Of a DNA stretch of 13,880 bases, positions 1 through 13,880 are shown piece by piece (the stretch's first letter is position 1; every line of letters starts with the position of its first letter). The DNA is from a virus. The translations under genes and the position numbers were made by a program. The notes below the pieces were generated by a model, which was given only the letters and a program-made list of their open reading frames with translations, ran no database searches and had not been told where the DNA came from. The stretch lies in UHGV virus genome UHGV-1775278. The stretch is one strand, 5' to 3'.

Positions 1-92
1 CAGCGGGGGTGCCTCCCCCTGGGGATATCCCCGGCCTTACCCCATTCTTTCAAGACACAATGCAAGGCCGCATCCGCATAGGTGCATTACCG

Positions 93-159
93 CAACATTA
101 AGGAGACTTAGGGCAAAAGGTAATCGCCACAAAAAAATCCCTATGCCTCCTTAATGTTG
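93..159. repeat. 13-bp perfect inverted repeat (CAACATTAAGGAG / CTCCTTAATGTTG) with 41-bp spacer
   Basis: Arms at 93-105 and 147-159 are exact reverse complements. Each arm contains an AAGGAG/CTCCTT core. A nested 5-bp inverted repeat TAGGG/CCCTA lies inside the spacer (109-113 and 139-143). Non-coding region with no ORF of 60 aa or more. Confidence 0.6.
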
Positions 160-365
160 AGGATGTGCATTGATGATGATTCGATGCGGCGAGTCCCGTT
201 ACTCTCTGCCGGACCATCATCAATGAACATCTTAAAAAGACCTTCCGTGGCTCAACATGTCTTGTTGTTTACTCCGTAAAGTGCTCTCTCTGAAACCACT
301 TTACGCACTAAACCTGCTGAACTTTGGCTTGCTCGGTGCCAAAGCGAGTCCCTGTATGCATGTAA

Positions 366-375
366 TTTTCTAACA
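366..375 (-). promoter_or_regulatory. Copy 1 of conserved element TTTTCTAACA (minus-strand reading TGTTAGAAAA)
   Basis: Exact 10-mer in the non-coding 1-533 region; one of five copies, all in the same orientation. Confidence 0.5.
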
Positions 376-389
376 CTTTAATTTGTTAT

Positions 390-465
390 TTGCTGGTGGG
401 CGAACAACAACCAATAAGTGACTATCAAGCCCAGCAAGCGAAATGTGGCAACGCTCCACCAGCAA
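390..465. repeat. Inverted pair of Chi octamers within a 10-bp inverted repeat (TTGCTGGTGG ... CCACCAGCAA)
   Basis: GCTGGTGG at 392-399 and its reverse complement CCACCAGC at 456-463. The flanking bases extend the match to a perfect 10-bp inverted repeat (390-399 and 456-465). Non-coding DNA. Confidence 0.6.
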
Positions 466-521
466 GGAAAATTCTAAGTTAAGTTACTCTCACAATCAAT
501 ATGTTCGTTTGATGAAATTAG

Positions 522-531
522 ATTTCTAACA
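522..531 (-). promoter_or_regulatory. Copy 2 of conserved element (ATTTCTAACA, 9 of 10 identical to the other copies)
   Basis: Begins 2 nt after the stop codon of the 406-aa gene. The flanks AAATTAGaTTTCTAACATATT closely match copy 3 (AAATTAGtTTTCTAACATATT). Confidence 0.5.
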
Positions 532-533
532 TA

Positions 534-1754
534 TTATTTCCCATAAAGATCTTCTACGCCCCCATTCTTCTTGTCCCATTCGTTAGCCCACACCCGGCAG
601 GCATCAATAATTTCTTGACGACGGTCGCCCTGCATAAAGGGGATGCTTTCATGAAAACTACTTGGGATACAGGCCACGCTGAATACGGTATCAAACGCAG
701 TCTGTTTGATAGCTTCCAACGTCTCTGGGCGCATTTTCAATTCATCGATCGGCGCATCCTTAGAGTCCATAATCCGGCGATGCAGGCGCGGGAAATCAGT
801 CTCCAGGTACGCCATAATTTTATCTGCCAGGCATTCGTCTATATCGGTATTCCAGTCCGTTTCGAAGCCGGGCAGGCGATAGTAAAGCGGCGTTCCCCAT
901 ACTGATGGGATCACATCCATCGTCAGCAGGCGGTTGGTTCTAATTTGTTGATGGTAATTAGCCGTCAACAGAGCTTCACCACGCTGACCAGTCTCCGCAA
1001 CCAGACCATGCGGGTACTCATGGATATAGGCAATAGCATCCACCCCGTCATACATGAGCGGGAATGTCTCTGGCCTTTGTCCCATACCACAAGCGCGGTT
1101 CAGATCATGACCAAGCTGTGAACACTCTCGTTTCAGCGTTTCAATAATGTTCTGCGCTGCTGCTAACTTTTTACGCAGTGTGACACCTTCGCCTTGATAC
1201 TTAATGCACTGCTGATTCAGCTCTGTTAAACGCTCTTTTAGTTCCCGACGCTCTCTTTTCAGCGCACGGTTATCCTTCTCCGCAACATCCAGTCGTTTTG
1301 ACAGGCTGGCTGGATAGTCTTTTTTGTAACGACTCAAATCGGCTTCTGCGGATTTGCGCAGTGTGTTTGCCTGTTCAAGACGCGCTTCCAGATTGCCGAT
1401 CTCACTACGCATACTCGCGGCAAATTGATTAACAGCATCGCCAAGACTTTCAACTGTCGCTGATACGCCTGTGACTCGTGAAAAACGGAGCAAGCCATCA
1501 TTAACAGCTTGTTGATATTCCTCAAACTGATCCACCAGCTTGTTGTAATCAACCGTCCCTTCCTCAAGTAGCTGGTTGATCTCCGCGACCAGGTTATCAG
1601 TCGTGGCAATGACGCTCTCATGTAACCGTCTGGACAGGTCATCCCCCGGATTCCGCTTTTGAATAAGGGCGATCTGTGTCCGCAGCGTTTCAATCGCGGC
1701 TGAGATGATTTCCAGATTAGAAGTATCAGTTTGTTGACTCATTGCAGTTCCCAT
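534..1754 (-). CDS. Hypothetical protein, N-terminal coiled-coil plus C-terminal globular domain (406 aa)
   Basis: Long uninterrupted minus-strand ORF. The N-terminal ~200 aa is charged and Leu-rich with heptad-like spacing (e.g. LEARLEQANTLRKSAEADL, RERRELKERLTELNQQ); the C-terminal ~200 aa is non-repetitive. A second in-frame ATG at 1742 has GGGA about 6 nt upstream, so the true start may be 1742. Element copy 3 and the terminator of the upstream operon lie just 5' of it. No family recognised. Confidence 0.7.
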   Translation of the reverse strand: MGTAMSQQTDTSNLEIISAAIETLRTQIALIQKRNPGDDLSRRLHESVIATTDNLVAEINQLLEEGTVDYNKLVDQFEEYQQAVNDGLLRFSRVTGVSATVESLGDAVNQFAASMRSEIGNLEARLEQANTLRKSAEADLSRYKKDYPASLSKRLDVAEKDNRALKRERRELKERLTELNQQCIKYQGEGVTLRKKLAAAQNIIETLKRECSQLGHDLNRACGMGQRPETFPLMYDGVDAIAYIHEYPHGLVAETGQRGEALLTANYHQQIRTNRLLTMDVIPSVWGTPLYYRLPGFETDWNTDIDECLADKIMAYLETDFPRLHRRIMDSKDAPIDELKMRPETLEAIKQTAFDTVFSVACIPSSFHESIPFMQGDRRQEIIDACRVWANEWDKKNGGVEDLYGK

Positions 1755-1770
1755 TGTTTTGCAAAATTAG

Positions 1771-1780
1771 TTTTCTAACA
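1771..1780 (-). promoter_or_regulatory. Copy 3 of conserved element TTTTCTAACA
   Basis: Located 17 nt upstream of the 406-aa gene start and downstream of the terminator at 1823-1849. A TAAAAT -10-like hexamer lies just 5' of it on the minus strand. Confidence 0.55.
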
Positions 1781-1822
1781 TATTTTATTAGTATGAGAAC
1801 AAGATCGAAAGATGTGATAAAC

Positions 1823-1849
1823 AAAAAACCCGCTAATCGGCGGGTTTTT
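1823..1849. terminator. Intrinsic terminator hairpin, bidirectional (A-run, CCCGC stem, 6-nt loop, GCGGG stem, T-run)
   Basis: Sequence AAAAAACCCGCtaatcgGCGGGTTTTT. On the minus strand the hairpin is followed by TTTTTT and sits directly after the stop of the 1856-2155 gene, closing the VRR-NUC operon. Confidence 0.65.
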
Positions 1850-1855
1850 GAGCGG

Positions 1856-2155
1856 TTATTGTGTCATTGCCTGGTAGATAAAATACACGATGCATACCGG
1901 TACGATAGCCCATTGCAGCAATGAAAGCAGCCTCATGGCTGTCATTGGAGTAACTCCGTCTACGTATTCCTTCTCTGACATTTTCCCTAACCAACTAACC
2001 GACAAAAGGGTCGAGTTCTCCCCCATTTCCAGCTCCCTGAGGGCTTCCCGGATTAAAGGCGCTGTTACCACCTTGCGGGCGGTGTTGAGCGTAATGCTCC
2101 GCGTCCTCCCGGCGTCATCGGCAAACGCCAGGTTCACATGATATTTTTTGCTCAA
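1856..2155 (-). CDS. Small hypothetical protein with C-terminal hydrophobic (probable transmembrane) segment
   Basis: The ORF track gives 1856-2170, but that start has no Shine-Dalgarno. An in-frame TTG at 2155 has GGGAG 8 nt upstream and overlaps the upstream stop as TTGA. C-terminus LLSLLQWAIVPVCIVYFIYQAM is hydrophobic. No family recognised. Confidence 0.5.
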   Translation of the reverse strand: MSKKYHVNLAFADDAGRTRSITLNTARKVVTAPLIREALRELEMGENSTLLSVSWLGKMSEKEYVDGVTPMTAMRLLSLLQWAIVPVCIVYFIYQAMTQ

Positions 2156-2352
2156 TGTACAAACTCCCAATCATCAGCGCCTGTACTTTCCGGGGTAATG
2201 TGAACCTTATCACCAGTGACAATATTCCGAGCCTCTATTGTTCCATTGCTGTGTTTCAACAACTCAACACACAATGGTTGCTGCCAGGAACGACGGCGAG
2301 CAACAACGTTAGCACCAGCAGGGATAAGTTCAGCCACGTTAAGTAAACGCAA
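2152..2352 (-). CDS. Small 66-aa protein, paralog of the 11762-11959 gene; tentatively DUF2829/Tad2-like
   Basis: TTG start with GGAGA 7 nt upstream, 14 nt after the VRR-NUC stop. Shares with the other copy the layout A..G.A.V.RR..W near the N-terminus and DW(E/I)(F/V)V at the C-terminus (GANVVARRRSW ... GADDWEFVH). Family assignment is from memory of the family pattern, not a search. Confidence 0.5.
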   Translation of the reverse strand: MRLLNVAELIPAGANVVARRRSWQQPLCVELLKHSNGTIEARNIVTGDKVHITPESTGADDWEFVH

Positions 2353-2366
2353 AACGATTTCTCCGT

Positions 2367-2675
2367 TTAATCAAGACAAACATATTCCGTGATAGCTTTT
2401 ATGGCTTCAGCGGCACTGCGCGCCTCAAAGCAGTAGTAACCTGCTTCGGTGAGGCGAGTCATCCAGACGAGTTGTTCGGGAGTCAGGCGATTTCTCCCAT
2501 GTTTCATCTCAATGCGCATTCCGTGGTATCCCCCACAAGCAAGGTCTATAGAAAGATCGGGATATCCCTTCTTTTGGCCCTCTGCCACCATTTTTATTGC
2601 CGTCCTTATGCCTCGCAGACCGCCGTTTGGAGTGGCGTGTGTATGCTCATACACATAGCGCATATTGCGATACAA
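2367..2675 (-). CDS. VRR-NUC domain nuclease (PD-(D/E)xK superfamily)
   Basis: Motifs HATPNGG, KGYPDLSI, GMRIEMKHGRNRLTPEQ and a C-terminal EAGYY..EARSAAEAIKAI helix match the VRR-NUC pattern. The only canonical start is TTG at 2675, but the frame stays open to 2810 and the extra codons still look like VRR-NUC helix 1 (HYEQVRVLDWL). Confidence 0.75.
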   Translation of the reverse strand: MYRNMRYVYEHTHATPNGGLRGIRTAIKMVAEGQKKGYPDLSIDLACGGYHGMRIEMKHGRNRLTPEQLVWMTRLTEAGYYCFEARSAAEAIKAITEYVCLD

Positions 2676-2812
2676 CCAATCCAGGACGCGTACCTGCTCG
2701 TAATGCTCATGGTTCCTTTTGATTAGATCTGGGTTTTTCTCCAGTTCTCTGAGAGCTGCGGCATGTGGGGACGTTTCAGAATATTCACTGCGACGCCTTC
2801 TTTTCCTCGCTA

Positions 2813-2822
2813 TTTTCTAACA
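2813..2822 (-). promoter_or_regulatory. Copy 4 of conserved element TTTTCTAACA
   Basis: Lies at the head of the VRR-NUC operon; the TAG inside the element is the stop that opens the VRR-NUC reading frame. Confidence 0.5.
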
Positions 2823-2996
2823 CACCCATTGATAGTAAATAAGCGAAATAATAACAACTGCGTTAGATTTGTAAAACAAGAGAGATACTACTCAAGGCTG
2901 GGCTATATGCAACAGGTAGGATTTGCTTTTAGAGTAAAAAGTGACCTTAATCAACAAGGAGGGTAAATCGCATGGCATTTACCCAACTTGTTATTT

Positions 2997-3257
2997 TTAA
3001 AGGTTTATTTTATCCGGTTCGGATATTTCTGTGATTGTCTTGTCGATTGCGATCAACCACCCTTCATAGGTTAAATCATCAACAAGCTCTACCAGTTTGT
3101 CTTCTGTATGAGGGAAGTATACCCAGCTCCAGCTCGCTGGGTTTTCTGCTTTTCGCAGCGTAAAAACCTTCTTGTAACGGTGAAACTCAAGGACATACCC
3201 CTTCGATATGGAATATTCCTTTAGGTCTTCGACCGTAAACCTACGATTCTTTCGCAT
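2997..3257 (-). CDS. Hypothetical protein (86 aa)
   Basis: ATG start 2 nt after the stop of the 144-aa gene (TAGccATG) with a G-rich stretch upstream. Last gene of the operon that contains the giant gene. No family recognised. Confidence 0.5.
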   Translation of the reverse strand: MRKNRRFTVEDLKEYSISKGYVLEFHRYKKVFTLRKAENPASWSWVYFPHTEDKLVELVDDLTYEGWLIAIDKTITEISEPDKINL

Positions 3258-3259
3258 GG

Positions 3260-3694
3260 CTACCCCATGATTCGATATTTCTCTATTGACTCGTCGTAAC
3301 TTGTGTACACGTATGGCTCTGTATCATCAGCATAAGGTGCGACTTCCAGAGCATGAACGGGATTGTATACCGCGTCATTTTCCAGGCGATCGCTCGAATA
3401 CAGATGCCCAGCCAAAACCGTAAGCGCCGGGCGACTCATTTTGTAGATCTCTGCCACATCACTATCTACAACTTGTCCAAATGATATGTCGCCGCGCTCC
3501 AGCAATATCGTTTTGAGCGCGGGCCACCACGGACCATAAAGGTGATAAAGCTGTGGATTTTTCTTCAGCCTTTCTACCATGCCATCAAGATAAACTGTCA
3601 GGTATTCTTCTTCACTCCTGCCATTGAGTGCCTGCGGCAAGATTTCCTCAAGGTAGGATTCCGTCGGTTTTACAGTGTCAATTAGTGTCGTCAT
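3260..3694 (-). CDS. Hypothetical protein (144 aa), immediately downstream of the giant methyltransferase-helicase gene
   Basis: ATG at 3694 lies 36 nt after the giant ORF stop. Same strand, acidic protein, no family recognised. Confidence 0.6.
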   Translation of the reverse strand: MTTLIDTVKPTESYLEEILPQALNGRSEEEYLTVYLDGMVERLKKNPQLYHLYGPWWPALKTILLERGDISFGQVVDSDVAEIYKMSRPALTVLAGHLYSSDRLENDAVYNPVHALEVAPYADDTEPYVYTSYDESIEKYRIMG

Positions 3695-3701
3695 TCAAAT
3701 T

Positions 3702-3719
3702 CGGCCCCGGTTGGGGCCG
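3702..3719 (-). other. GC-rich hairpin (CGGCCCC ggtt GGGGCCG) between a Shine-Dalgarno sequence and the start codon of the 144-aa gene
   Basis: 7-bp perfect GC stem with 4-nt loop. On the minus strand the order is TAA (giant ORF stop), cagat, AAGGAG, hairpin, aatttga, ATG. Confidence 0.55.
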
Positions 3720-3730
3720 CTCCTTATCTG

Positions 3731-6700
3731 TTAGGCCGCATCGGCGATTATTTTACGCAGTTCATCTACCGAGTAACGCGTAGATACCATCCATGCCGGA
3801 CGGTCAAAGTTCACATCAGCAACCGGGTTTGCTTCAAAATTCCAGAAACGCCCGCCAATCTTCTTAATCGCGTCCTTGGCGTTCCGTATTGTCGAGGAAC
3901 CGGGCTGATCGGCAATGAGATAAACGGCTCCCACATCTTCACTGACACTCCACCAGCGCCCGCGAACACGGGCTTTAGCGCGAATCGGCTTATCATTAAC
4001 CACAATGATATAGTCATCATTCGCCGCTTCATCAGCTCTGGCTTCAGCCACTGCCGCCTGCTCTTCTCTTTTGCTTTCAGCCTGCTCAAGCCTTTCCGCG
4101 ATCTCTGATTCAGTGGCCCCGCCGTTTTTCAGCGATACATAGTCCTGCCACGTTGCCGATTTGAGCGCATCCGGCAACTCATTCACATAGTCGCCGTCTT
4201 TCAACTCACGGGCGCGACGGGTAGCCATTTCTACCAGGCGATTAACAGAAACAGCATCAGCAAAATCGTCCTTACTAATGTGTTTTTCATCAAATGCATT
4301 GATGACAGCCCCCACCTTAATCCACTGCGCTGCTGGCGAATCCAGAGGATTATCGGCCTGAACAATGGCTAATTTCGCTCCATCGACACCATTATTAGCC
4401 AGCTGCTCCAATGCCGACCAGCCATCGGCATCGCTGAGTGATTTATATTGCTCAAACAATGCATCGCGCCAGGCCACCAGCGCAGCTCGTGTTTTCTCAA
4501 TTTTCGCCGTAATTTTCGCGGCCTTCACCTGATTAAACATCCGTTCAATGTCATCAGTGTTGCTAAAGGCTTTCATCCTGCCCTGGAATAAACGGTATGC
4601 CACCACGGTCTTCCAGAAAGATTCCAGCCCTTCTCCGGACGGTTTACGGAACAGGCTAAGAATATCTTCAGAAGTAACTTTATTAAGTGAGCGACTGGAC
4701 AAACCACGCCCTGCCATCCAGTTTTCAAACTCCTGGGAAACATCATCCATCGTGGCCTGTGCCCCCCATGCCTGCATTCCCTGGATGTAATCATATCCAT
4801 ACAATGCCTGGAGGAATCCCTCGCCGTCCACGACATTCAGCGGGTTATCACTGGCTTGTATTTTTGCCACTTCACGCTTCAGCGCCTCATCGTTGCCATC
4901 AGGGTAAATCCACCGCTCAGGCGCTATATCCGATGCTCGCCCGATTTTTTGACCTATTACGCCATCATAAGCCGATGACAGTGCAATCTGACCATCATCG
5001 GTGCGATAAGCCCAGTATTTAATAGCTGAACCACCGCCCCATACTCTACCAGGCTTCCCGGCAGTGACATTCATTACCCCATTGCGAATAGCATCATAGA
5101 ACTGATCGCGCGTAAGTGTTGTTGATAGCTGGTGGCATTGAACACCACGTGCAGCTGTTTCACGCGATTCTGCAACTCCCTCTTCAAAGGTTACCGATTC
5201 AATTATCAGGTTAAAGGGCAAAAATAATGCCGTACCCGGAGAACGAGAGTAACGACTAGCCACATCCAGCCAGGATATGCGGCACGTACACCCGCCCCTT
5301 TCCGCATCAATGGCGGTAACACGAACAATTGCTGTCGTATTGTGATTCTCATCGATGATCGCGCGATAATGGCTGTCCTTGTGCAACAAGATATTTTTCT
5401 CAGTGCGTACATACTCCTGTGGGTTCTGCAATACATCGGCATCAAGCTCCAGAACCCCGGCTTTAATCGCACGTTCCAGATCACCACGGGAACGTTTCAT
5501 AACGGTGTCAGCGTCTTTAGCTCTGGTGATCGCAAAGCGTAGCTCCCGCACACGTTTTCTGTAGTCTCGCAACTGTTCCAGAACATATTTCTGCCCGTTC
5601 CTGTTCGTCCCCGCTTTAATCAGGTCGTCAAGATTGCGCTGGTAATGCTCTACCTGCTCCATCGCGCTTTTCAGTTCTGTCTCCATCATGCCGATATCTT
5701 TCCCGGCAGCATTCGCCGCTTTCAGGTAGTTATCGAGAGCATTATTGGCTTCGCGTAGGGCTTTCAGTTTCAGACGTTCTTCACGCTCTTGCGCCTGACG
5801 ACTCATGATTGCACGGCGTTCTTCCGGATTTGCCGCCAGCATAATGGCGCGTTCATCTGCGTCATCCGCATCACCATTGGCGATCTCTGACATGTCGGAG
5901 GTCATCACCATATTGATCCAGTCCTTCTTACGTTTCAGCGTATCCAGACGGAAGTCGTCGAATGTGCCTTTGCCACAATAGTAGTGAACATTGACCTTTT
6001 CTTGCGGTGAACCTACGCGCGCACCGCGCCCATTTCGTTGGTCGATACTGGCTGGTGTCCAGGGTAGTGTCAGGTGGTGGATATCGGTTGTCCCGATGTG
6101 CAGGTTAATACCTACTTCAGCCTTCTTGTTACAGATTATGATGCGCGTGCGACCTTCGTTATAGTCGGCGGCAATACCTTCCATGCCCTCAAGGCCAGCA
6201 TCATTTTTAGCTGAGAGATAATCCTCATATTGGGCAAGTTTGCTGTAGTAGGTTTCCCATGCACCTTCTTTGTATTCACCGTTTTTATTTGGCGTAGGTT
6301 CAGTAGGCTTATTCACCTTCTTCAGCTTGACGCCGCCAGCCTGGCTAACTGTCGTCGCATTGATAATGCCTATCTCCTGCTCCGGCATTTGCAGTGCACT
6401 GGCAATAATACGGCGCAGCTTCTGGTGCTGGGCTTTTTCATCAATGAAGACGATTTGTTTACCGTTCTTCAGACCTTCACGAAGGTTTTCGATCAGCGCG
6501 GCATACTTCGGCGGGATGGGGTGTGATACCTGCTGCATATCAATACCGGCAGCCGCAATGGCCTTCAGTATTTCAGCTTCCAGTTCAATGCCAGCACGTA
6601 TTTCAACATGCGACGGATGTTCGCTAAAGGTGGTCTTCACTACCTTGCTGGTACGCGTACTGACCAGCCCACCAGCGCCATCTTCTTCGGCCTCGTCTGC

Positions 6701-9700
6701 ATCATCTGCCACTTTACCGCCAGCTACTTTTGGCAGGGCATCAGCAATAGCTTTTACCTTGTCTGCAAGCTCAACGGGGAACTGGAATGTAATCGCACTG
6801 GCATACAGATCAGGATCTATAGCAACCTTATCCATGTCGCGGATGATGGAGAAGATGAAATCATCCGGTTTTTCGTTTGTGATATGCCCGTTTTCATCGA
6901 CCGTCAGCGCATCTTTACTACTTAACTCCTGTGCACGCTTACGAAGTTCTTCGTAAATGGCCTCTTGCTCTCCTGTCATCGGGATCTGCAAGGTATTCTC
7001 GACAATATCAGGGATTTTTACCGTCGCCCCGACGTCCGCAGCAGTCTTCAGAGTAGTCCAGCGATGGAAAATACCACGCAGACCATCCAGGTTCTGGAAG
7101 CCCACCAGCCCCTGCTTCTCTTCCACCTCACCGGAAATTTTCTGAACCTGAACTGTGGCTGTTTTACCGAACACGCGAACGAAATCATCCGGCGTAACAA
7201 TACCCATGCGCATCCACTCTTCCTGCGGAATGACAGTAGACAGCATGTTGAAAGCATCAATCGGGCTGTTCACCAGCGGTGTTGCCGTCAGCATAACCAC
7301 ACCACGCCCGTTGTTGCGTTTCATCATGTACGCAGCTTTTACAGCCATATCACGAGCCATTTTGGATACTGCCGGGTTAGGCAAATATGCCAGTTGCCCC
7401 GCTTCGCGCCCGGCGCTAAAGGAGTTGCGGTAGTTATGCCCTTCGTCGGCAATTACGCTATCGAAGTTCATATCCTCAAAGTACGGGATATTCTGCTTCT
7501 TCGTTGTACCGGTATTTGCGGCCTGGTCCTTAATCTTGTTCTTCTTCTGCGCGTCACGGTGTTTGCCAGATGCCAGGTCAAGACGCCCCATTTCCACAGC
7601 ATTAAAGACCGCTTGCTGTGAGTTTTCCTCAATGGTTTCTTCTCGTAGCGGGATAGACGCGAATTGCTCTTTTGTCATGATGACCGTTCGCCAATTTGAC
7701 GACGGGATCATGTTCATGCGCTGAACGATAACGGCGCTGGCGGACTCTTTCACAACATTTCTGGTAAGAGCCTGCCCGTTACTGTCGAGGCGTGGTTCGC
7801 CATTTTCATCAAGCACCGGCGCGGTCAGAATATTTCCGCTGTCATCACGAACTTCATCCAAACCGATAAACATCATATTAGCGAAGGCATCAGCACTGTA
7901 GAAACTCTGTGCCTCGTGATACCAGTTCTGATAAACCGCCTTCGGAACAACAATACACGTGCGTTTAGTGCGACCTGTTTCGAAGTTATACGCCTCAAGC
8001 GCAAGCGCGGTCGTGGTTTTACCCAGCCCGGTGCCAAATCCCATGATGCCGCGCCCATCTTCTGATAAGCGACGAACTTCTTCATTCTGATAAGTCAGAG
8101 GAATGCGCTTCCCACTAATCCCCTCCAGGCCAAGCGGTGCGTCAGAATGCGTAAACGGGATGAAGCCATTAAATGCGTCGTTATAGTCGCGGGCTATCTG
8201 ATCAGCCTGCGGGTGAGTGCGTAACCAGTCGTTGAAGCTAATTTCCAATTGAGCAATCTTATCCAGGTACTCGTTAGCGTTCTGCCCACGCGGTTTAATG
8301 CCGTTCAGGTAGTTTTCTAACTGGTTCAGGAAGCCGTCTTTATTGTTGGCCTTCTTGAACTCATTCCCGTTTTTGCCGTTTACGGTTCGTAGTTGATAGC
8401 CAGTAAATACCCCGTCCTTACCTTCGTAATCGTCCGGAGATACCAGAATGCCGTCCTCAACCTTAAGGTCGGGTTCTGTATACTTAAACTCGTCATAGCC
8501 CTGCTCTGCCAGGAACTCTTTTATCAAGCGGCGATCCAGCCAGCGGGCGTTCAGATTAACGGTGACTTTATTTAGTGGCGTGAAAATGCGTTTCTCTTCG
8601 ATTTTCGCCAACTGACGCTCAAAGTTCGCTTTCTGCTCACCTGTTGACGCATCACGCCAGCCCACCAGCAATGCTGTTTTGGTTGCAATATCGCCGCTGG
8701 TGGCGCGGTCCATCGGCAGCAGGCAGCCATACCCATCAATAGCGATATCATCAAATTTCGCCAGGTATTCCAGAGCAGCATCGTCGTCTCCTGGCAGTTC
8801 GCCAGCAAACGCCTCACGAAAATCGTCCAGTGTGATTGGATTAAGTGCCACGTCACTGAAAAGGTGGGTTACAACTTGTTCCGGGCGTGTAAAATCAATA
8901 CCGGCAGCACCATCCGTTACATCAAGTCGTCCAGCAAGGAGGTCAGAAGCAGAGCCGTCCTGTTTCACGTTGCCAGTGAAAGTCATCCAGTTTTTAGCGC
9001 CAGCTTCAGCAATCCCATTCAGCTTAATCGCGTGCGGCGGACCATACTTCGCAATTTCGGCTTCCGCCAGGCGCGCGGCATCAGCAAGTTCATCATCAAC
9101 ATTTTCCCCCAGATTACGCTTATCAAGCGCCTTGTTGATCAACTGCCCTATCAGTGCGCCGCGCATAACGCGTTCTCTGTCTTTTTCTCTCTGCTTGCCA
9201 GCAAAGCGAATCATTGCCGCTACTTCATCACTGATAACCGATGGATAGTCGGACGCGATCGCCGATATCTGGTCCCATGACAACGCCAGAATGCCATTTG
9301 TTGACTGAAACGCGATCTGCAGATCGCCAAACGTCGAAACACCATATCGGCTTACATCAAGCGCGGAGGATTTGGTTGTCGTGTCCTTGACCCATTTCAG
9401 GCCATCAAACTCATGCCAGATGCCGCCTACAAGGCGTTTATCGCCCACTTTCGCGCCCTGCCATGCCTGAGTAGTTACGCCGAGCAAATCCCAATTAATG
9501 CGGCTTTCAAAGCGGCGCGATAGAGCGGTTTTCATCGACTCATTGGATACACGACCGTCCTTTTTCACCACCAGGGTATTGCGGAAGCTGGTACGCTCCA
9601 TATCGCCGTAAACAAATCGCTTCCCTTCGGTTGTAAACCATTTTCCTTTGAGGAAGGTATCCCAAAGGACGTTTGCCGATTTGAGCGTCGAATCATCCGT

Positions 9701-10687
9701 ATCGGGGATCATCTCCAGAAAGGCTTCCGGGTGTTTACGCAATACCCATACGTCCACCACGGTATCTGTACCTGATTCACTGAACGTACCGGAAGGCATA
9801 CGATGCGCGCCCAAAAATTCCGCTTTACGGCTGACTTTATCGCGCAATTTTTTGTATTTCGTACCATCAGTCATGCCATTCGGCACCACCAATACGATAA
9901 GCCCACCAGGTTTAACCTTGTCGATCGTGCGCAGCACAAAGTAATTGCCAACGTTCTTCTCGTTTGCATATGCCGGATCAAGCCCTGCAACGCCGGAACG
10001 GCCTTCGCCAAACGGTACGTTACCAACAGCGTGATCATACATTGCGTCTTTCGCCGCCAGAGCCTCGAACGCCCCAATGTTCACATCGTCTTCCGGGTGC
10101 AACAGCTGGTTGATTCGACCGGAGATCGGAGACAGCTCGGCGCTGGTCATTATCATTCCCTGCCGTTTTGTCTCCTGGAAAATACCCGTGCCAGCTGATG
10201 GTTCCAGTACGTGACCGCCATCAATACCGTAGTCAGCAAACAGCTCCCATATACCTTCAGCCATAAACTGTGGTGTGTAGTATTCGTATTGACTGCCTTC
10301 GCCGTCAGTAAGGCCGCCTTCACCTGTATACCCTGCAAGAATCTGACGCTGTTCGTCAGTTAATTTCGCCCCATCGAATCCGGGCGGAAGGGAATTAAGA
10401 AGATCTACTGCGGCGTTGTTTGCTGCCCGCCGTGTTTTTTGAATGCTGACACCATCGACTTTCTTAACGCCAAAGGTCGCAACAGATCGCGGTTTATGCA
10501 ACCGACTAACAATTTCAATCAGCGCCCCAATGCTGGTGGCCTGGCTAATTGAATCAATTATTTTGTCCAAAGGAAGCCCCCTCAAAACCGTTAAATCCGC
10601 CTGTAGCGGTACGGTTTGAAAGGGTATGGAGTGTGTTAATTTGGAAGAATAAGAGCGGAAAAGGTCAGGCGATACGAACGAACTCAC
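3731..10687 (-). CDS. Giant fused N6-adenine DNA methyltransferase / SNF2-like helicase (2318 aa), DarB-like anti-restriction candidate
   Basis: Single 6.96-kb ORF. Codons verified by hand: methyltransferase motif I LEPSAGTG (10184-10207) and motif IV NVPFG (10007-10021); helicase Walker A GFGTGLGKTT (8012-8041), motif II DEGH (7436-7447), LTATP motif and motif VI QRNGRGAR (about 6017-6040). About 760 C-terminal residues have no recognised domain. GTG start with weak Shine-Dalgarno. Confidence 0.9.
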   Translation of the reverse strand: MSSFVSPDLFRSYSSKLTHSIPFQTVPLQADLTVLRGLPLDKIIDSISQATSIGALIEIVSRLHKPRSVATFGVKKVDGVSIQKTRRAANNAAVDLLNSLPPGFDGAKLTDEQRQILAGYTGEGGLTDGEGSQYEYYTPQFMAEGIWELFADYGIDGGHVLEPSAGTGIFQETKRQGMIMTSAELSPISGRINQLLHPEDDVNIGAFEALAAKDAMYDHAVGNVPFGEGRSGVAGLDPAYANEKNVGNYFVLRTIDKVKPGGLIVLVVPNGMTDGTKYKKLRDKVSRKAEFLGAHRMPSGTFSESGTDTVVDVWVLRKHPEAFLEMIPDTDDSTLKSANVLWDTFLKGKWFTTEGKRFVYGDMERTSFRNTLVVKKDGRVSNESMKTALSRRFESRINWDLLGVTTQAWQGAKVGDKRLVGGIWHEFDGLKWVKDTTTKSSALDVSRYGVSTFGDLQIAFQSTNGILALSWDQISAIASDYPSVISDEVAAMIRFAGKQREKDRERVMRGALIGQLINKALDKRNLGENVDDELADAARLAEAEIAKYGPPHAIKLNGIAEAGAKNWMTFTGNVKQDGSASDLLAGRLDVTDGAAGIDFTRPEQVVTHLFSDVALNPITLDDFREAFAGELPGDDDAALEYLAKFDDIAIDGYGCLLPMDRATSGDIATKTALLVGWRDASTGEQKANFERQLAKIEEKRIFTPLNKVTVNLNARWLDRRLIKEFLAEQGYDEFKYTEPDLKVEDGILVSPDDYEGKDGVFTGYQLRTVNGKNGNEFKKANNKDGFLNQLENYLNGIKPRGQNANEYLDKIAQLEISFNDWLRTHPQADQIARDYNDAFNGFIPFTHSDAPLGLEGISGKRIPLTYQNEEVRRLSEDGRGIMGFGTGLGKTTTALALEAYNFETGRTKRTCIVVPKAVYQNWYHEAQSFYSADAFANMMFIGLDEVRDDSGNILTAPVLDENGEPRLDSNGQALTRNVVKESASAVIVQRMNMIPSSNWRTVIMTKEQFASIPLREETIEENSQQAVFNAVEMGRLDLASGKHRDAQKKNKIKDQAANTGTTKKQNIPYFEDMNFDSVIADEGHNYRNSFSAGREAGQLAYLPNPAVSKMARDMAVKAAYMMKRNNGRGVVMLTATPLVNSPIDAFNMLSTVIPQEEWMRMGIVTPDDFVRVFGKTATVQVQKISGEVEEKQGLVGFQNLDGLRGIFHRWTTLKTAADVGATVKIPDIVENTLQIPMTGEQEAIYEELRKRAQELSSKDALTVDENGHITNEKPDDFIFSIIRDMDKVAIDPDLYASAITFQFPVELADKVKAIADALPKVAGGKVADDADEAEEDGAGGLVSTRTSKVVKTTFSEHPSHVEIRAGIELEAEILKAIAAAGIDMQQVSHPIPPKYAALIENLREGLKNGKQIVFIDEKAQHQKLRRIIASALQMPEQEIGIINATTVSQAGGVKLKKVNKPTEPTPNKNGEYKEGAWETYYSKLAQYEDYLSAKNDAGLEGMEGIAADYNEGRTRIIICNKKAEVGINLHIGTTDIHHLTLPWTPASIDQRNGRGARVGSPQEKVNVHYYCGKGTFDDFRLDTLKRKKDWINMVMTSDMSEIANGDADDADERAIMLAANPEERRAIMSRQAQEREERLKLKALREANNALDNYLKAANAAGKDIGMMETELKSAMEQVEHYQRNLDDLIKAGTNRNGQKYVLEQLRDYRKRVRELRFAITRAKDADTVMKRSRGDLERAIKAGVLELDADVLQNPQEYVRTEKNILLHKDSHYRAIIDENHNTTAIVRVTAIDAERGGCTCRISWLDVASRYSRSPGTALFLPFNLIIESVTFEEGVAESRETAARGVQCHQLSTTLTRDQFYDAIRNGVMNVTAGKPGRVWGGGSAIKYWAYRTDDGQIALSSAYDGVIGQKIGRASDIAPERWIYPDGNDEALKREVAKIQASDNPLNVVDGEGFLQALYGYDYIQGMQAWGAQATMDDVSQEFENWMAGRGLSSRSLNKVTSEDILSLFRKPSGEGLESFWKTVVAYRLFQGRMKAFSNTDDIERMFNQVKAAKITAKIEKTRAALVAWRDALFEQYKSLSDADGWSALEQLANNGVDGAKLAIVQADNPLDSPAAQWIKVGAVINAFDEKHISKDDFADAVSVNRLVEMATRRARELKDGDYVNELPDALKSATWQDYVSLKNGGATESEIAERLEQAESKREEQAAVAEARADEAANDDYIIVVNDKPIRAKARVRGRWWSVSEDVGAVYLIADQPGSSTIRNAKDAIKKIGGRFWNFEANPVADVNFDRPAWMVSTRYSVDELRKIIADAA

Positions 10688-11009
10688 CGTCTATTGCGTG
10701 TTCACCCCCGGCATCATCTCGCATAACAGCACACTGACCTGGAAGGCCATAACGAACAACCATACAACGAACACCATCGCCACAACCGCTCTGAGTCCTG
10801 TTTTGTCTCCTCTCATACGATTTTACCCGTTCAAGTGTTCGCCTTGTTGATTCGAGATAATACTGTTTGTCGATTGCATCCGTACTATGCAGCAAGTAAG
10901 CCACCCCGGACACATCAAACGGAGGCGATCCAATCTCCATTGTCACCCACTCACGGTTATCCGGTTCAAAGTAGCTGAGTATCTCTTTTTTTCTTCTTGT
11001 CAGTCTCAT
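10665..11009 (-). CDS. Hypothetical protein (114 aa) whose 3' end overlaps the giant gene start by 23 nt
   Basis: ATG at 11009 with GAGG 8 nt upstream. Sits directly downstream of the palindromic control region. The C-terminal third is low complexity, so the true extent is uncertain. Confidence 0.5.
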   Translation of the reverse strand: MRLTRRKKEILSYFEPDNREWVTMEIGSPPFDVSGVAYLLHSTDAIDKQYYLESTRRTLERVKSYERRQNRTQSGCGDGVRCMVVRYGLPGQCAVMRDDAGGEHAIDGEFVRIA

Positions 11010-11020
11010 GTTTGCAACCT

Positions 11021-11052
11021 CTTATTGTGGGATAGCTCTATCCTACAATAAG
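11021..11052. promoter_or_regulatory. 32-bp near-perfect palindrome (CTTATTGTGGGATAG ct CTATCCTACAATAAG), candidate operator
   Basis: 15-bp arms at 11021-11035 and 11038-11052 with one mismatch. Lies 12 bp upstream of the 114-aa gene start, in the divergent region between the giant-gene operon and the lysin gene. Confidence 0.6.
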
Positions 11053-11067
11053 AAACGTAACAACATT

Positions 11068-11083
11068 TATGATTTAAATCATA
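11068..11083. promoter_or_regulatory. 16-bp perfect palindrome TATGATTTAAATCATA, candidate operator
   Basis: Exact self-complementary 16-mer in the same divergent intergenic region, 16 bp from the 32-bp palindrome. Confidence 0.5.
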
Positions 11084-11243
11084 TGGTTAATTAATGAGAA
11101 AGCTCAAACATTCAGTATACGGTTAACACTCAACATGCCACGGACAAGGAAGGCTTAGGGGCGTACCGGGGTAAGAAAATTGCTGCCATGAAAATCACAT
11201 ACTCCCCATAGTTTATGTTCATTTGTTAATCAGAGGGGTAGTT

Positions 11244-11729
11244 ATGGTAAGTTCCGATCCTCGTTGGCTGATGGAAGCCCGTAAACATATTGGCCTGACC
11301 GAAATCAAAGGGGCTAAACACAATCCTGAAATCGTCCAGTTCTGGCGGGATATTAAACGCGGTGGGATTAAAGACGATGAAACTCCGTGGTGCGCAGCAT
11401 TTGTTGGCGCAATGTTAGAGCGTGTGGGTATCCGCTCAACAAGATTTGAGTCGGCAAAATCCTATCTGGATTGGGGCGAGAAACTGGATACACCAGCATA
11501 CGGATGTATCGTTGTATTTACCCGCGTAGGCGGTGGGCATGTAGGCTTCGTCGTCGGACGCCGCGCCAATGGCGATCTGCTTGTCCTTGGTGGGAATCAG
11601 GGGGATGCGGTGAATATTCGCGCATTCCCGACATCAAGAGTGTCGGGCTATCGCTGGCCTGCTGGCGAACCACGCAATACAGCTCTGTTACCAGTCGGAG
11701 ACGCAGCAACCTCAACCAATGAGGCATGA
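11244..11729 (+). CDS. Papain-like Cys/His hydrolase (CHAP / NlpC-P60-like, TIGR02594-type), candidate endolysin
   Basis: ATG at 11244 has GAGGGG 5 nt upstream; the ORF-track start at 11223 is a TTG with no Shine-Dalgarno. Candidate catalytic Cys in ETPWCAAFVGA and His in GGGHVGFVVG, spaced as in CHAP-type amidases. Only plus-strand gene in the window. Confidence 0.75.
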   Translation: MVSSDPRWLMEARKHIGLTEIKGAKHNPEIVQFWRDIKRGGIKDDETPWCAAFVGAMLERVGIRSTRFESAKSYLDWGEKLDTPAYGCIVVFTRVGGGHVGFVVGRRANGDLLVLGGNQGDAVNIRAFPTSRVSGYRWPAGEPRNTALLPVGDAATSTNEA

Positions 11730-11759
11730 AAAAAGCCCCGGCCAGGCCGGGGCATCACG
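11729..11759 (-). terminator. Intrinsic terminator for the minus-strand Rha operon (GC hairpin GCCCCGGCC a GGCCGGGGC followed by T-run on the minus strand)
   Basis: Perfect 9-bp arms at 11735-11753. The minus-strand reading is hairpin then TTTTTT. On the plus strand the hairpin follows the lysin stop but has no T-run. Confidence 0.7.
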
Positions 11760-11761
11760 CT

Positions 11762-11959
11762 TCAAGTCACGATCCAATCATTACCGACTATATCAGCCGT
11801 CGCTAAATCAACTTCCCGGATCTGGAGTCCATTAATACAAAACCACCCGGTAGTAGAGCAATTATCAGGCCAGGCCCATACACCAACACTCCATGCTTTA
11901 CGGCGGCACACTTCAGCCTGTCCTTCGCTGATTTTTTTTACCGCCTGCATGATGTCCAT
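11762..11959 (-). CDS. Small 65-aa protein, paralog of the 2152-2352 gene; tentatively DUF2829/Tad2-like
   Basis: ATG at 11959 has GGGGAGG 6 nt upstream and overlaps the Rha stop (TGATG). Carries the shared motifs GQAEVCRRKAW ... IVGNDWIVT. Last gene before the terminator. Confidence 0.55.
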   Translation of the reverse strand: MDIMQAVKKISEGQAEVCRRKAWSVGVWAWPDNCSTTGWFCINGLQIREVDLATADIVGNDWIVT

Positions 11960-12666
11960 CACTCACCTCCCCAACCGATCACCTGGAATTGCCCCATTTT
12001 GGGGTGATACCAGCGTTTTCCTCGGTGTTCAGCCTCAGACATCATCCGGTTAAAGGCATTCATAAAGGGAGATAAGGCCACAATAGAACGACGCGACAAT
12101 ACCCCCTCTGGCGTTAAAAACTCATGCGTATCGGTGGGGATACGGTAAGCATTGACCAGGTTACGGCATTTGGCTTCAGTCAGGCCGCATTTCGCCGCTA
12201 ACTGGCGGTAGCCAATGTAACCATCTGGCATGTTACCCTTCTTGATTTGCTCGACGGTTTCTACCACCTGGCTAACCTTTGACTCAACAACATGAAGCCG
12301 CTTTTGCTGCTGAACTGCATTTGCAGCCATTGCGGCGATCATCTCTATTTCGGTCAACGGCTGGCGTACTTGTTCTTCCAGTTCGCGCCAGCGGTCCACC
12401 AGCCGGGCGGTGAATTCCGGAGAGAGCTGCGCAACGACAATAATGCTGTCTCGTTTGCCTTGCTCGCCTTCGAAGACGTAAGCCTCGACACTACGGCGTA
12501 GTCCTAAGTTATTGATTTTTTCGAAAACCTGCAATGCAGGAAGTTGAATAACTCCAGATTTAGCCAGGCGCTCTATTGATATTTTTACGTTATCTGGACG
12601 ACTTCCCACCAGCTCCGCGATCTCAATGCTGGTCATTGATGGCTTTTCAAGAATGCAGATATCCAT
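11959..12666 (-). CDS. Rha-family phage regulatory protein (antirepressor-like)
   Basis: N-terminal MTSIEIAELVGSRPDNVKISIERL matches the Rha-family start pattern. Preferred start is the ATG at 12666 (GGAGG 7 nt upstream, ATGA overlap with the upstream ORF stop); the ORF-track start at 12711 has no Shine-Dalgarno. Confidence 0.8.
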   Translation of the reverse strand: MDICILEKPSMTSIEIAELVGSRPDNVKISIERLAKSGVIQLPALQVFEKINNLGLRRSVEAYVFEGEQGKRDSIIVVAQLSPEFTARLVDRWRELEEQVRQPLTEIEMIAAMAANAVQQQKRLHVVESKVSQVVETVEQIKKGNMPDGYIGYRQLAAKCGLTEAKCRNLVNAYRIPTDTHEFLTPEGVLSRRSIVALSPFMNAFNRMMSEAEHRGKRWYHPKMGQFQVIGWGGE

Positions 12667-13088
12667 CAGTGTGCCTCCGCAATTCCGGGATTGGTAATAT
12701 TGCGATACCAAGGATTAGTGTTTGGTTGTGATGAAGTAGAGAAACGGCCAGTCAGGACGCCATGTTGATCAGGGATCAGAGAACGGGCTTCTTTTTCAGT
12801 TGCGGCAATTGCGAAGTGATCACAGTGTTTTTGCAGGGAGTGGAAACGCCAGATAAATTCCGGGCGCGAGCAAGGATTGGCATTAACCATAGTTACGGCC
12901 TCATTCGTAGGTTTAACAACCTGCGCCCCGCTGCTAAACGGGTGGCAGGACGTGACGGGGTTAGCAGACTGGCACGAATGAAACCAGCAGGCCGAAGCCT
13001 CCCCATCACGCCCCACCATAATTCGGGCGTAACGTGGTTTTACGGACACAAAAATACCGCAATATCGGATATCTGCGGTTGTCCGCAT
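12666..13088 (-). CDS. Hypothetical Cys/His-rich protein (140 aa), uncertain
   Basis: Open frame between element copy 5 and the Rha gene, ending in an ATGA overlap with the Rha start. Six Cys and several His (CWFHSC, SCHPF, HCDHF). No convincing Shine-Dalgarno at either candidate ATG, so it could instead be a long 5' leader. Confidence 0.35.
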   Translation of the reverse strand: MRTTADIRYCGIFVSVKPRYARIMVGRDGEASACWFHSCQSANPVTSCHPFSSGAQVVKPTNEAVTMVNANPCSRPEFIWRFHSLQKHCDHFAIAATEKEARSLIPDQHGVLTGRFSTSSQPNTNPWYRNITNPGIAEAH

Positions 13089-13240
13089 TCGTATTCAGGC
13101 TGCTAAACCCGGTCGCAGAATTTGCTACGACGACATGAATATAAGCCTGAAAACATGGAAGATCAACTAAAAATTTCAGCAATGGATGACTTCAGTCGAT
13201 GATGCAGATCATACATTCCGATTTAGAAACAGCAAATTAA

Positions 13241-13250
13241 TTTTCTAACA
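13241..13250 (-). promoter_or_regulatory. Copy 5 of conserved element TTTTCTAACA, with inverted partner TTAGAAA 12 bp away
   Basis: Lies in the intergenic region between the stop of the partial gene (13305) and the 140-aa ORF / Rha operon. TTAGAAA at 13223-13229 is the reverse complement of TTTCTAA at 13242-13248. Confidence 0.5.
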
Positions 13251-13304
13251 CAAATTATCGGGCGAGCATTTTCCGATCATTGGGATGCTTTGTAGACACA
13301 CAGG

Positions 13305-13880
13305 TCATCCCCTAAATCCCGCAGGGATTAACCAATCCTCACGGTCAAATTCAGACCGATAGCCACGCTGTTTCATCAGGTCAAAGGCTTCACCAATGGT
13401 TGCACACCCCTGGGAGCCAGAATAATCCATTGAGAAATCCAAGGCACTGGATTGTTTAGGCTTATTCACTGCGGTAGCGGCACTACGTATCCATGCAAAT
13501 TTTTTTGCCAGCTTTTCAGCGGTACGATACAGAGCCTGCCGTTTTGTGTGCCCCTCGTCTGAACGACGCTTTGCAGCTCTCGCTTTTGCCGCCGCCAGGC
13601 AGTGGTTGGTATGTTCTTCCCTGATTACTGTTTTTTTATCCAGTACCCCGTTATCCGTTTGAGAACTATCTGCTGGTGAAGCCTTTGGCTGAACCGCGCA
13701 TGATCTTTCTCTTCTTTTGGCTATAGAGTGACTCTTATTTTCTATTGGCTGTTCATTTTGAACATGGGGGGACTTGTTCAATTTGAACAGGGGGTTCCCA
13801 GTTTCAAAAAAATAACGAACCTTTGAAATCAACTGCTTAACCAGTTTTGTGGCGTTGGCAAATTTGATGCCCTGCTTACC
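13305..13880 (-). CDS. Hypothetical protein, 5' end outside the window (partial)
   Basis: The minus-strand frame is open from the window edge to the TGA at 13305-13307; the ORF-track TTG at 13832 is probably internal. Basic, Ala/Lys/Arg-rich middle region. No family recognised. Confidence 0.5.
   Translation of the reverse strand, partial: GKQGIKFANATKLVKQLISKVRYFFETGNPLFKLNKSPHVQNEQPIENKSHSIAKRRERSCAVQPKASPADSSQTDNGVLDKKTVIREEHTNHCLAAAKARAAKRRSDEGHTKRQALYRTAEKLAKKFAWIRSAATAVNKPKQSSALDFSMDYSGSQGCATIGEAFDLMKQRGYRSEFDREDWLIPAGFRG

Follow-up and report, generated by a model that had tools for sequence, protein, structure and literature searches.

The window, which is the whole stretch of DNA analysed (13,880 nucleotides of the virus genome UHGV-1775278), was studied for its content of Chi, the octamer GCTGGTGG that serves enteric bacteria as Chi (PMC12315714). 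Thirteen copies were found by exact search, four on the plus strand and nine on the minus strand. They probably reflect selection for Chi as a RecBCD signal, in both orientations, in a phage family that relies on host RecBCD and RecA. This reading rests on the Chi excess, its specificity for the exact word, the conservation of sites, the enrichment of both orientations and a layout found across the family; its mechanism is drawn from the account given for phage P1. The excess is real and selected, but it is known already from P1 and phages related to it and, in parallel, from lambdoid phages without a recombination module, LLS among them. Added here are a codon-aware null, a contrast with a host in which sense Chi alone is enriched, conservation among D6-like sequences and turnover of sites in a diverged darB gene, some of which may be published already.

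The window was matched over its full length, at 99.8% identity, to positions 36016-49896 of an E. coli circular plasmid of 92,487 bp (NZ_CP116996.1, hereafter p92), and at 91.8% identity across 96% of its length to phage D6 (MF356679), a P1-family plasmid prophage. At least 80% of the window is covered by each of more than 100 plasmids from E. coli, Shigella and Salmonella, and darB, ulx, pmgS, pmgR, pmgM, the c4-icd-ant immunity module and repL are all present. By these matches the window is part of a D6-like, P1-family phage-plasmid of E. coli. The enterobacterial host proposed by an earlier reading made from the letters of the window (the sequence-only reading) agrees with the matches. By the annotation of NZ_CP116996.1 and D6, the replicon has a headful terminase (pacA/pacB), a Cre-type recombinase together with a lox/rox site, and genes for plasmid partition and replication.

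Chi count, word specificity and conservation

The plus-strand copies start at 392, 5128, 8696 and 10532, and the minus-strand copies at 456, 1532, 3950, 4474, 6669, 7102, 8662, 12396 and 12606. The sequence-only reading had tallied 12, all with the right coordinates and orientations, and had overlooked the plus copy at 8696-8703. Its chance expectation of less than one copy was confirmed by dinucleotide-preserving shuffles of the window (mean 0.46, maximum 3, none of 200 reaching 13), and the window is, as it had stated, denser in Chi than E. coli, with one copy per 1.07 kb versus one per 3.85 kb in a 150-kb sample of the K-12 chromosome. The published density for K-12 is one per 4.6 kb (PMC12315714). 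Over the whole of p92 one copy was found per 1.68 kb. Chi was the commonest octamer both in the window (13 copies, runner-up 7) and in the replicon (55 copies, runner-up 34).

Codon-preserving shuffles were of two kinds. In the synonymous null, synonymous codons were permuted within each gene, keeping the protein and the per-gene codon counts; in the dinucleotide-preserving null, all dinucleotides were kept too. The two intergenic Chi were held fixed under both. The 13 copies in the window compare with 3.4 (synonymous) and 4.7 (dinucleotide-preserving) expected, and were reached in none of 3000 shuffles. For the genes of the window taken separately, 11 copies were observed versus 1.43 (synonymous, Poisson P = 3.5e-7) or 2.68 (dinucleotide-preserving, P = 1e-4), and for the whole replicon 55 versus 12.4 (synonymous, maximum 22) or 20.8 (dinucleotide-preserving, maximum 34). 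Since shuffles that keep both protein and codons fall this far below the observed number, codon usage does not explain the Chi count. The caveat of the sequence-only reading, that part of the bias may come from codon usage, holds for the strand bias (see below) and fails for the count.

Specificity was assessed with the 24 one-mismatch neighbours of Chi, which averaged 0.9 copies in the window and 5.4 copies (maximum 17) in the replicon, so that Chi is about 10 times commoner than its one-mismatch variants. These results bear on the view that Chi is not selected at all and is a by-product of codon usage, of proteins rich in leucine and valine (Leu-Val), of a host-like oligonucleotide bias or of recently acquired host DNA. 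Several observations speak for such an origin: six of the eight sense Chi lie in the Leu-Val frame G-CTG-GTG-G, CTG is the commonest leucine codon of E. coli (PMC12315714), the K-12 chromosome is itself 2.3-fold enriched in Chi, and the strand asymmetry is wholly explained by codon composition. It is nevertheless very improbable, given that the shuffles never attained the observed count, that neighbours of similar composition are so much rarer, that antisense and non-coding Chi are enriched too, that the sites are conserved above background, and that the host shows an enrichment 2-3 times weaker and with a different strand pattern.

The flanks of the 55 replicon copies were near-random, and no longer repeated element was found to extend from Chi. 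Chi as a piece of a longer dispersed repeat was rejected on these flanks and on a repeat search that gave no such family. The octamer might still have been selected for a function unrelated to RecBCD, as a site bound by a protein of the phage or the host, or as part of a dispersed repeat or structured RNA. In favour of this is the pair of sites at 392-399 (plus) and 456-463 (minus), both invariant, which together form a 10-nt inverted repeat (TTGCTGGTGG / CCACCAGCAA) in non-coding DNA. A structured RNA or hairpin at this pair was rejected, its stability not being significant (z = -1.9). Most other copies are genic, in varied frames and on both strands, and the enriched word is identical to the Chi of enteric bacteria, the phages being confined to hosts that use it; with the near-random flanks, these points leave a function of this kind scarcely credible. 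The DNA around the pair (window 1-533) holds no convincing open reading frame (ORF) and no Prokaryotic Genome Annotation Pipeline (PGAP) or D6 annotation, and is part of a gap of about 1.2 kb after the tRNA genes; further imperfect inverted repeats were seen at 69-236.

Selection on Chi as a RecBCD signal is also consistent with the behaviour of the sites among relatives. Eleven of the 13 window Chi are intact in D6, versus 55% of background octamers (P = 0.03). Site presence was then scored across seven aligned D6-like sequences (pairwise identity 89-99%), in which eight of the 13 sites were invariant versus 38% of background, and mean retention was 5.15 of 6 versus 3.56 for background (permutation P = 0.006). 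Each relative keeps 10-14 Chi across the window region. Chi is thus preferentially conserved among the D6-like relatives, consistent with purifying selection.

The invariant sites (seven of seven sequences) comprise the non-coding pair at 392 and 456, where codon usage cannot apply, and six sites in genes. One is sense in the pmgS-like gene at 1532-1539 (minus; Leu-Val frame, K-L-V-D), and one is sense in the anti-repressor gene of the Rha/Roi type at 12396-12403 (minus; Leu-Val frame). The other four lie in the darB-like gene: 3950-3957 (minus; sense, R-W-W-S frame), 4474-4481 (minus; sense, Leu-Val frame), 5128-5135 (plus; antisense) and 8696-8703 (plus; antisense, aligned with an antisense Chi of P1 darB). 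Polymorphic sites differ through single-base changes. The site at 6669-6676 (minus; sense in darB) was present in three of the seven sequences, the others carrying CCGCCAGC, and a polymorphic Chi at window 6333 in two relatives compensates for it; the site at 10532-10539 (plus; antisense near the 5' end of darB) was present in four, the others carrying GCTGGAGG. The remaining three were retained in most sequences: 7102-7109 (minus; sense in darB, Leu-Val frame, six of seven, aligned with a sense Chi of P1 darB), 8662-8669 (minus; sense in darB, Leu-Val frame, five of seven) and 12606-12613 (minus; sense in the anti-repressor gene, Leu-Val frame, six of seven).

Eight of the 13 window Chi are held by darB, and the P1 gene holds 11 (six sense and five antisense), with only two at shared alignment columns. 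The window DarB protein is 94.7% identical to that of D6 and 43% identical to that of P1. The Chi richness of darB is therefore maintained through site turnover, despite this divergence from P1.

Strand bias and the host chromosome

The 9:4 split between minus and plus strands is indistinguishable from 1:1 (binomial P = 0.27). All eight genic minus-strand Chi lie on the coding strand, and all three genic plus-strand Chi are antisense in darB. The minus excess arises because nearly all genes of the window are on the minus strand, where Chi suits the common Leu-Val reading. Sense copies made up eight of 11 coding Chi, versus a fraction of 0.75-0.87 predicted by the shuffles (P = 0.17 to 1.0). 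When the two classes were taken separately, eight sense Chi were observed versus 1.24-2.0 expected and three antisense Chi versus 0.19-0.68 expected, antisense Chi being enriched at least as strongly as sense Chi. The minus-strand excess is a coding-strand effect without directional meaning. The strand bias of a motif that is compatible with coding needs a codon-aware null; here the bias vanishes under it and the count stays.

As a host baseline, the 150 kb of E. coli K-12 were subjected to the same codon-preserving shuffles. The overall ratio of observed to expected Chi was 2.3, made up of 34 sense copies versus 12.4 expected (2.7-fold) and five antisense copies versus 4.7 expected, which is not an enrichment. 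In the phage-plasmid, in contrast, 13 antisense Chi were found versus 2.26 expected (P = 8e-7). In the K-12 sample the 39 copies of Chi did not exceed those of GCTGGCGG (43), and the one-mismatch neighbours averaged 12. The chromosome and the phage-plasmid thus share the octamer and the enzyme, and on the chromosome too Chi is mostly on the coding strand and in the Leu-Val frame; they differ in that the chromosome has about one Chi per 4-4.6 kb with sense-only enrichment, whereas the window is about four times denser and enriched on both strands.

Chi around the packaging site and its proposed use

The genes lpa, pacA, pacB and c1, the rox site and the Cre-type recombinase gene are found left of the window, at a distance of 4-9 kb. 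The window itself spans 4-18 kb from the pacA/pac region. The sequence-only reading had suggested a double-strand end exposed during packaging, and headful packaging from pac, with pacA and pacB 4 kb from the window, is in keeping with this. If packaging proceeds from pacA towards pacB, c1 and the lox-type site, which we take to be its direction, the window would be on the unpackaged side of pac; with the opposite direction it would be inside the first terminal repeats. It is near pac either way.

Chi totals are similar in p92 (55), D6 (53) and P1 (50), the P1 figure agreeing with the published one. In all three, Chi is dense from about -22 to +40 kb from pac and sparse from roughly +40 to +70 kb. 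The darB gene, at +18 kb in P1 and -12 kb in D6, is rich in Chi on either side of pac. In P1 and D6 alike, Chi is found in tail genes 5, 6, 24, 7 and 25, and the block that begins with darA, includes S, sit and tub and ends with genes 22 and 23, which is farthest from pac in both phages, has almost none. A dependence of Chi density on gene class (late structural or other) was not supported, with tail genes bearing Chi and the darA-to-gene-23 block not. Position and gene content are not fully separable because the blocks are syntenic.

The sequence-only reading had also proposed selection in one direction. By such an account, minus-strand Chi would stop RecBCD molecules moving one way, away from pac through the window, after entry at the unpackaged side of the pac cut or at a rolling-circle tail, as cos-oriented Chi do in lambda and LLS. 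To compare orientations, p92, D6 and P1 were re-oriented to begin at pac along the inferred packaging direction, and Chi were sorted into four classes, sense or antisense in a gene running with or against packaging. With packaging from pacA to pacB, c1 and rox, the window would be 4-18 kb onto the unpackaged side, and nine of its 13 Chi would have the orientation that RecBCD recognises when travelling away from pac. Over the 22 kb upstream of pac, orientations split 13:4 in p92, 13:3 in D6 and 13:5 in P1, and overall they split 34:21, 33:20 and 31:19 (p92, D6 and P1), though only 38% of the coding sequence of P1 runs in the direction of packaging. LLS and lambda follow a logic of this kind (PMC12315714).

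The evidence from gene direction makes such an account unlikely. The window ratios given above match the coding-strand expectation, and the 9:4 split does not depart from equality. In the upstream zone of p92 the favoured orientation was enriched 7.8-fold (12 versus 1.54 expected) and the opposite one 12-fold (three versus 0.25), and sense Chi in genes opposing packaging were enriched 10-12-fold in p92 and D6. All four orientation classes were enriched 3-12-fold in p92, D6 and P1, with no consistent preference for an absolute orientation. The account also leans on the packaging direction assumed above. When orientation was related to pac and to gene direction, the bias was no greater than gene direction predicts, and the proposal of selection in one direction was not upheld.

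Selection for Chi in both orientations agrees with what has been reported for P1. P1 requires host RecA and RecBCD, and its linear, terminally redundant DNA must recombine into circles and concatemers (PMC12315714). It has 50 Chi, Chi being its most frequent octamer, mostly in or near the terminal repeats, and three P1-related phages have been reported to be alike in Chi behaviour (PMC12315714, citing Subramaniam and Smith 2022). The P1 Chi have been proposed to turn RecBCD from degradation to RecA loading (PMC12315714). By extension, phages of the D6 type would fill their heads from pac by the headful and deliver linear DNA that is terminally redundant; having no annotated recombinase module or RecBCD inhibitor, they would depend on host RecBCD and RecA. 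RecBCD would enter at an exposed double-strand end (at either end of virion DNA, at the side of a pac cut left unpackaged or on a rolling-circle tail) and would soon reach a correctly oriented Chi, at which degradation would stop and RecA would be loaded. Cyclisation or recombination-dependent replication would then follow instead of destruction of the DNA. Since the ends of headfuls are permuted and either side is open to RecBCD entry, both orientations would be useful.

The Chi-dense zone may further be centred on pac and reach about 20 kb onto its unpackaged side. In that case a second use of Chi can tentatively be proposed, namely the rescue, through RecBCD/RecA recombination-dependent replication, of the concatemer end left by each pac cut; it is put forward because a zone on the unpackaged side cannot serve cyclisation of the terminal repeats. 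P1 and D6 both keep a pac-centred dense zone, despite the move of darB and of the immunity/repL block from one side of pac to the other. We regard this extension as possible and somewhat doubtful. If it were true, enrichment in both directions, absent from the host chromosome, would be a signature of permuted genome ends.

Several points weigh against selection for Chi as a RecBCD signal, or limit how far it can be pressed. The conservation tests make no correction for the common ancestry of the relatives. Because some sites may survive the dinucleotide-preserving shuffle, which is a constrained one, the true enrichment is to be placed in the range from about 4-fold to 8-fold. The contrast of the Chi-poor zone, once normalised with the codon-aware null, is about 2.5-fold and only marginally significant (P = 0.04 in p92, 0.22 in P1). 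RecBCD action at the window Chi, and the need of the D6-like phage for RecBCD, are transferred from the P1 literature. Neither NZ_CP116996.1 nor D6 has an annotated recombinase module or RecBCD inhibitor, Ref and an RdgC-like protein being all that appears; this is a negative at the level of annotation, in which many genes are 'hypothetical' and unprofiled. The packaging direction is an assumption carried over from P1: literature searches gave no explicit statement of it, and the P1 record lists pac cleavage positions without a direction. Finally, the D6-like pac was positioned by pacA homology and a GATC cluster. The pac of P1 is defined by two clusters of TGATCA/G HEX repeats; P1-type HEX clusters were sought in the D6-like pacA (NZ_CP116996.1 30832-32196, and D6 pacA) and were absent, and five GATC sites were found there within 130 bp (gene positions 316-447). 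The pac site of the D6-like subgroup probably differs in detail from that of P1.

Of the systems already described, P1 is the closest. It shares pacAB, c1, a cre/lox-type site, darB, pmgS, c4-icd-ant and repL with the D6-like genomes, and its Chi are concentrated around the pac/terminal-repeat region as theirs are; the D6-like genomes are, however, rearranged, so that darB and the immI/repL block lie across pac from where P1 has them. LLS, a lambdoid phage without a recombination module (PMC12315714), resembles them in having about one Chi per 1.9 kb, Chi as its top octamer, no annotated phage recombination module and a Chi cluster beside its packaging site, and in its proposed use of host RecBCD for growth rather than its evasion. 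It differs in being a cos phage in which 20 of 23 Chi are oriented towards one end, whereas in p92 and P1 both orientations are enriched and their ratio is the coding-strand expectation.

With selection for Chi as a RecBCD signal, a plasmid-prophage group that is widespread in E. coli, Shigella and Salmonella would share the P1 strategy, in which the DNA is filled with a RecBCD regulatory signal and this enzyme, the chief double-strand-end nuclease of the host, is not blocked. A high Chi density would mark an enterobacterial host and a phage that is probably RecBCD-dependent rather than RecBCD-inhibiting, and would be relevant for the recoding of P1-type vectors.

Genes and other features of the window

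Gene names were taken from the curated D6 annotation. Nearly all the genes lie on the minus strand. They are pmgS (534-1742), pmgR (1856-2155), pmgM (VRR-NUC; 2367-2675), ulx (3260-3694), darB (3731-10570; an SNF2 helicase/methyltransferase for defence against restriction) and the Rha/Roi-type anti-repressor gene (11959-12666). They also include a peptidoglycan hydrolase gene on the plus strand (11244-11729), icd (12666-12890) and the 3' part of repL (13305-13880). The C4 antisense RNA (RF01695; 12938-13023, minus, 71.9 bits) and its a1/b1 target element (RF03163; 13092-13144, minus, 52.2 bits) were identified with Rfam, and together constitute a c4-icd-ant immunity module of the immI type. 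A second copy of icd and the Rha anti-repressor gene is found elsewhere on the replicon (record positions 12674-13737).

A 17-nt motif, AAATTARTTTTCTAACA, was found in four copies (359-375, 515-531, 1764-1780 and 13234-13250) versus 0.10 expected, with a weaker copy near 2810-2823. They are located between c4 and repL and upstream of pmgR/pmgS, where C1-repressor operators are found in P1, and may be the C1 operators of the D6 type.

An ORF at 10665-11009 (minus), encoding a hypothetical protein of 114 amino acids, is shared, together with its flanks (about 10600-11240), with pIso00270_02. D6 and most relatives lack this region, which explains the 4% of the window that their matches leave uncovered. 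The replicon NZ_CP116996.1 also encodes a Tad2 anti-Thoeris protein, a glutaminyl-tRNA synthetase, four tRNA genes and two toxin-antitoxin pairs, and an IS200/IS605 TnpA/TnpB insertion adjoins its RepB replication gene.

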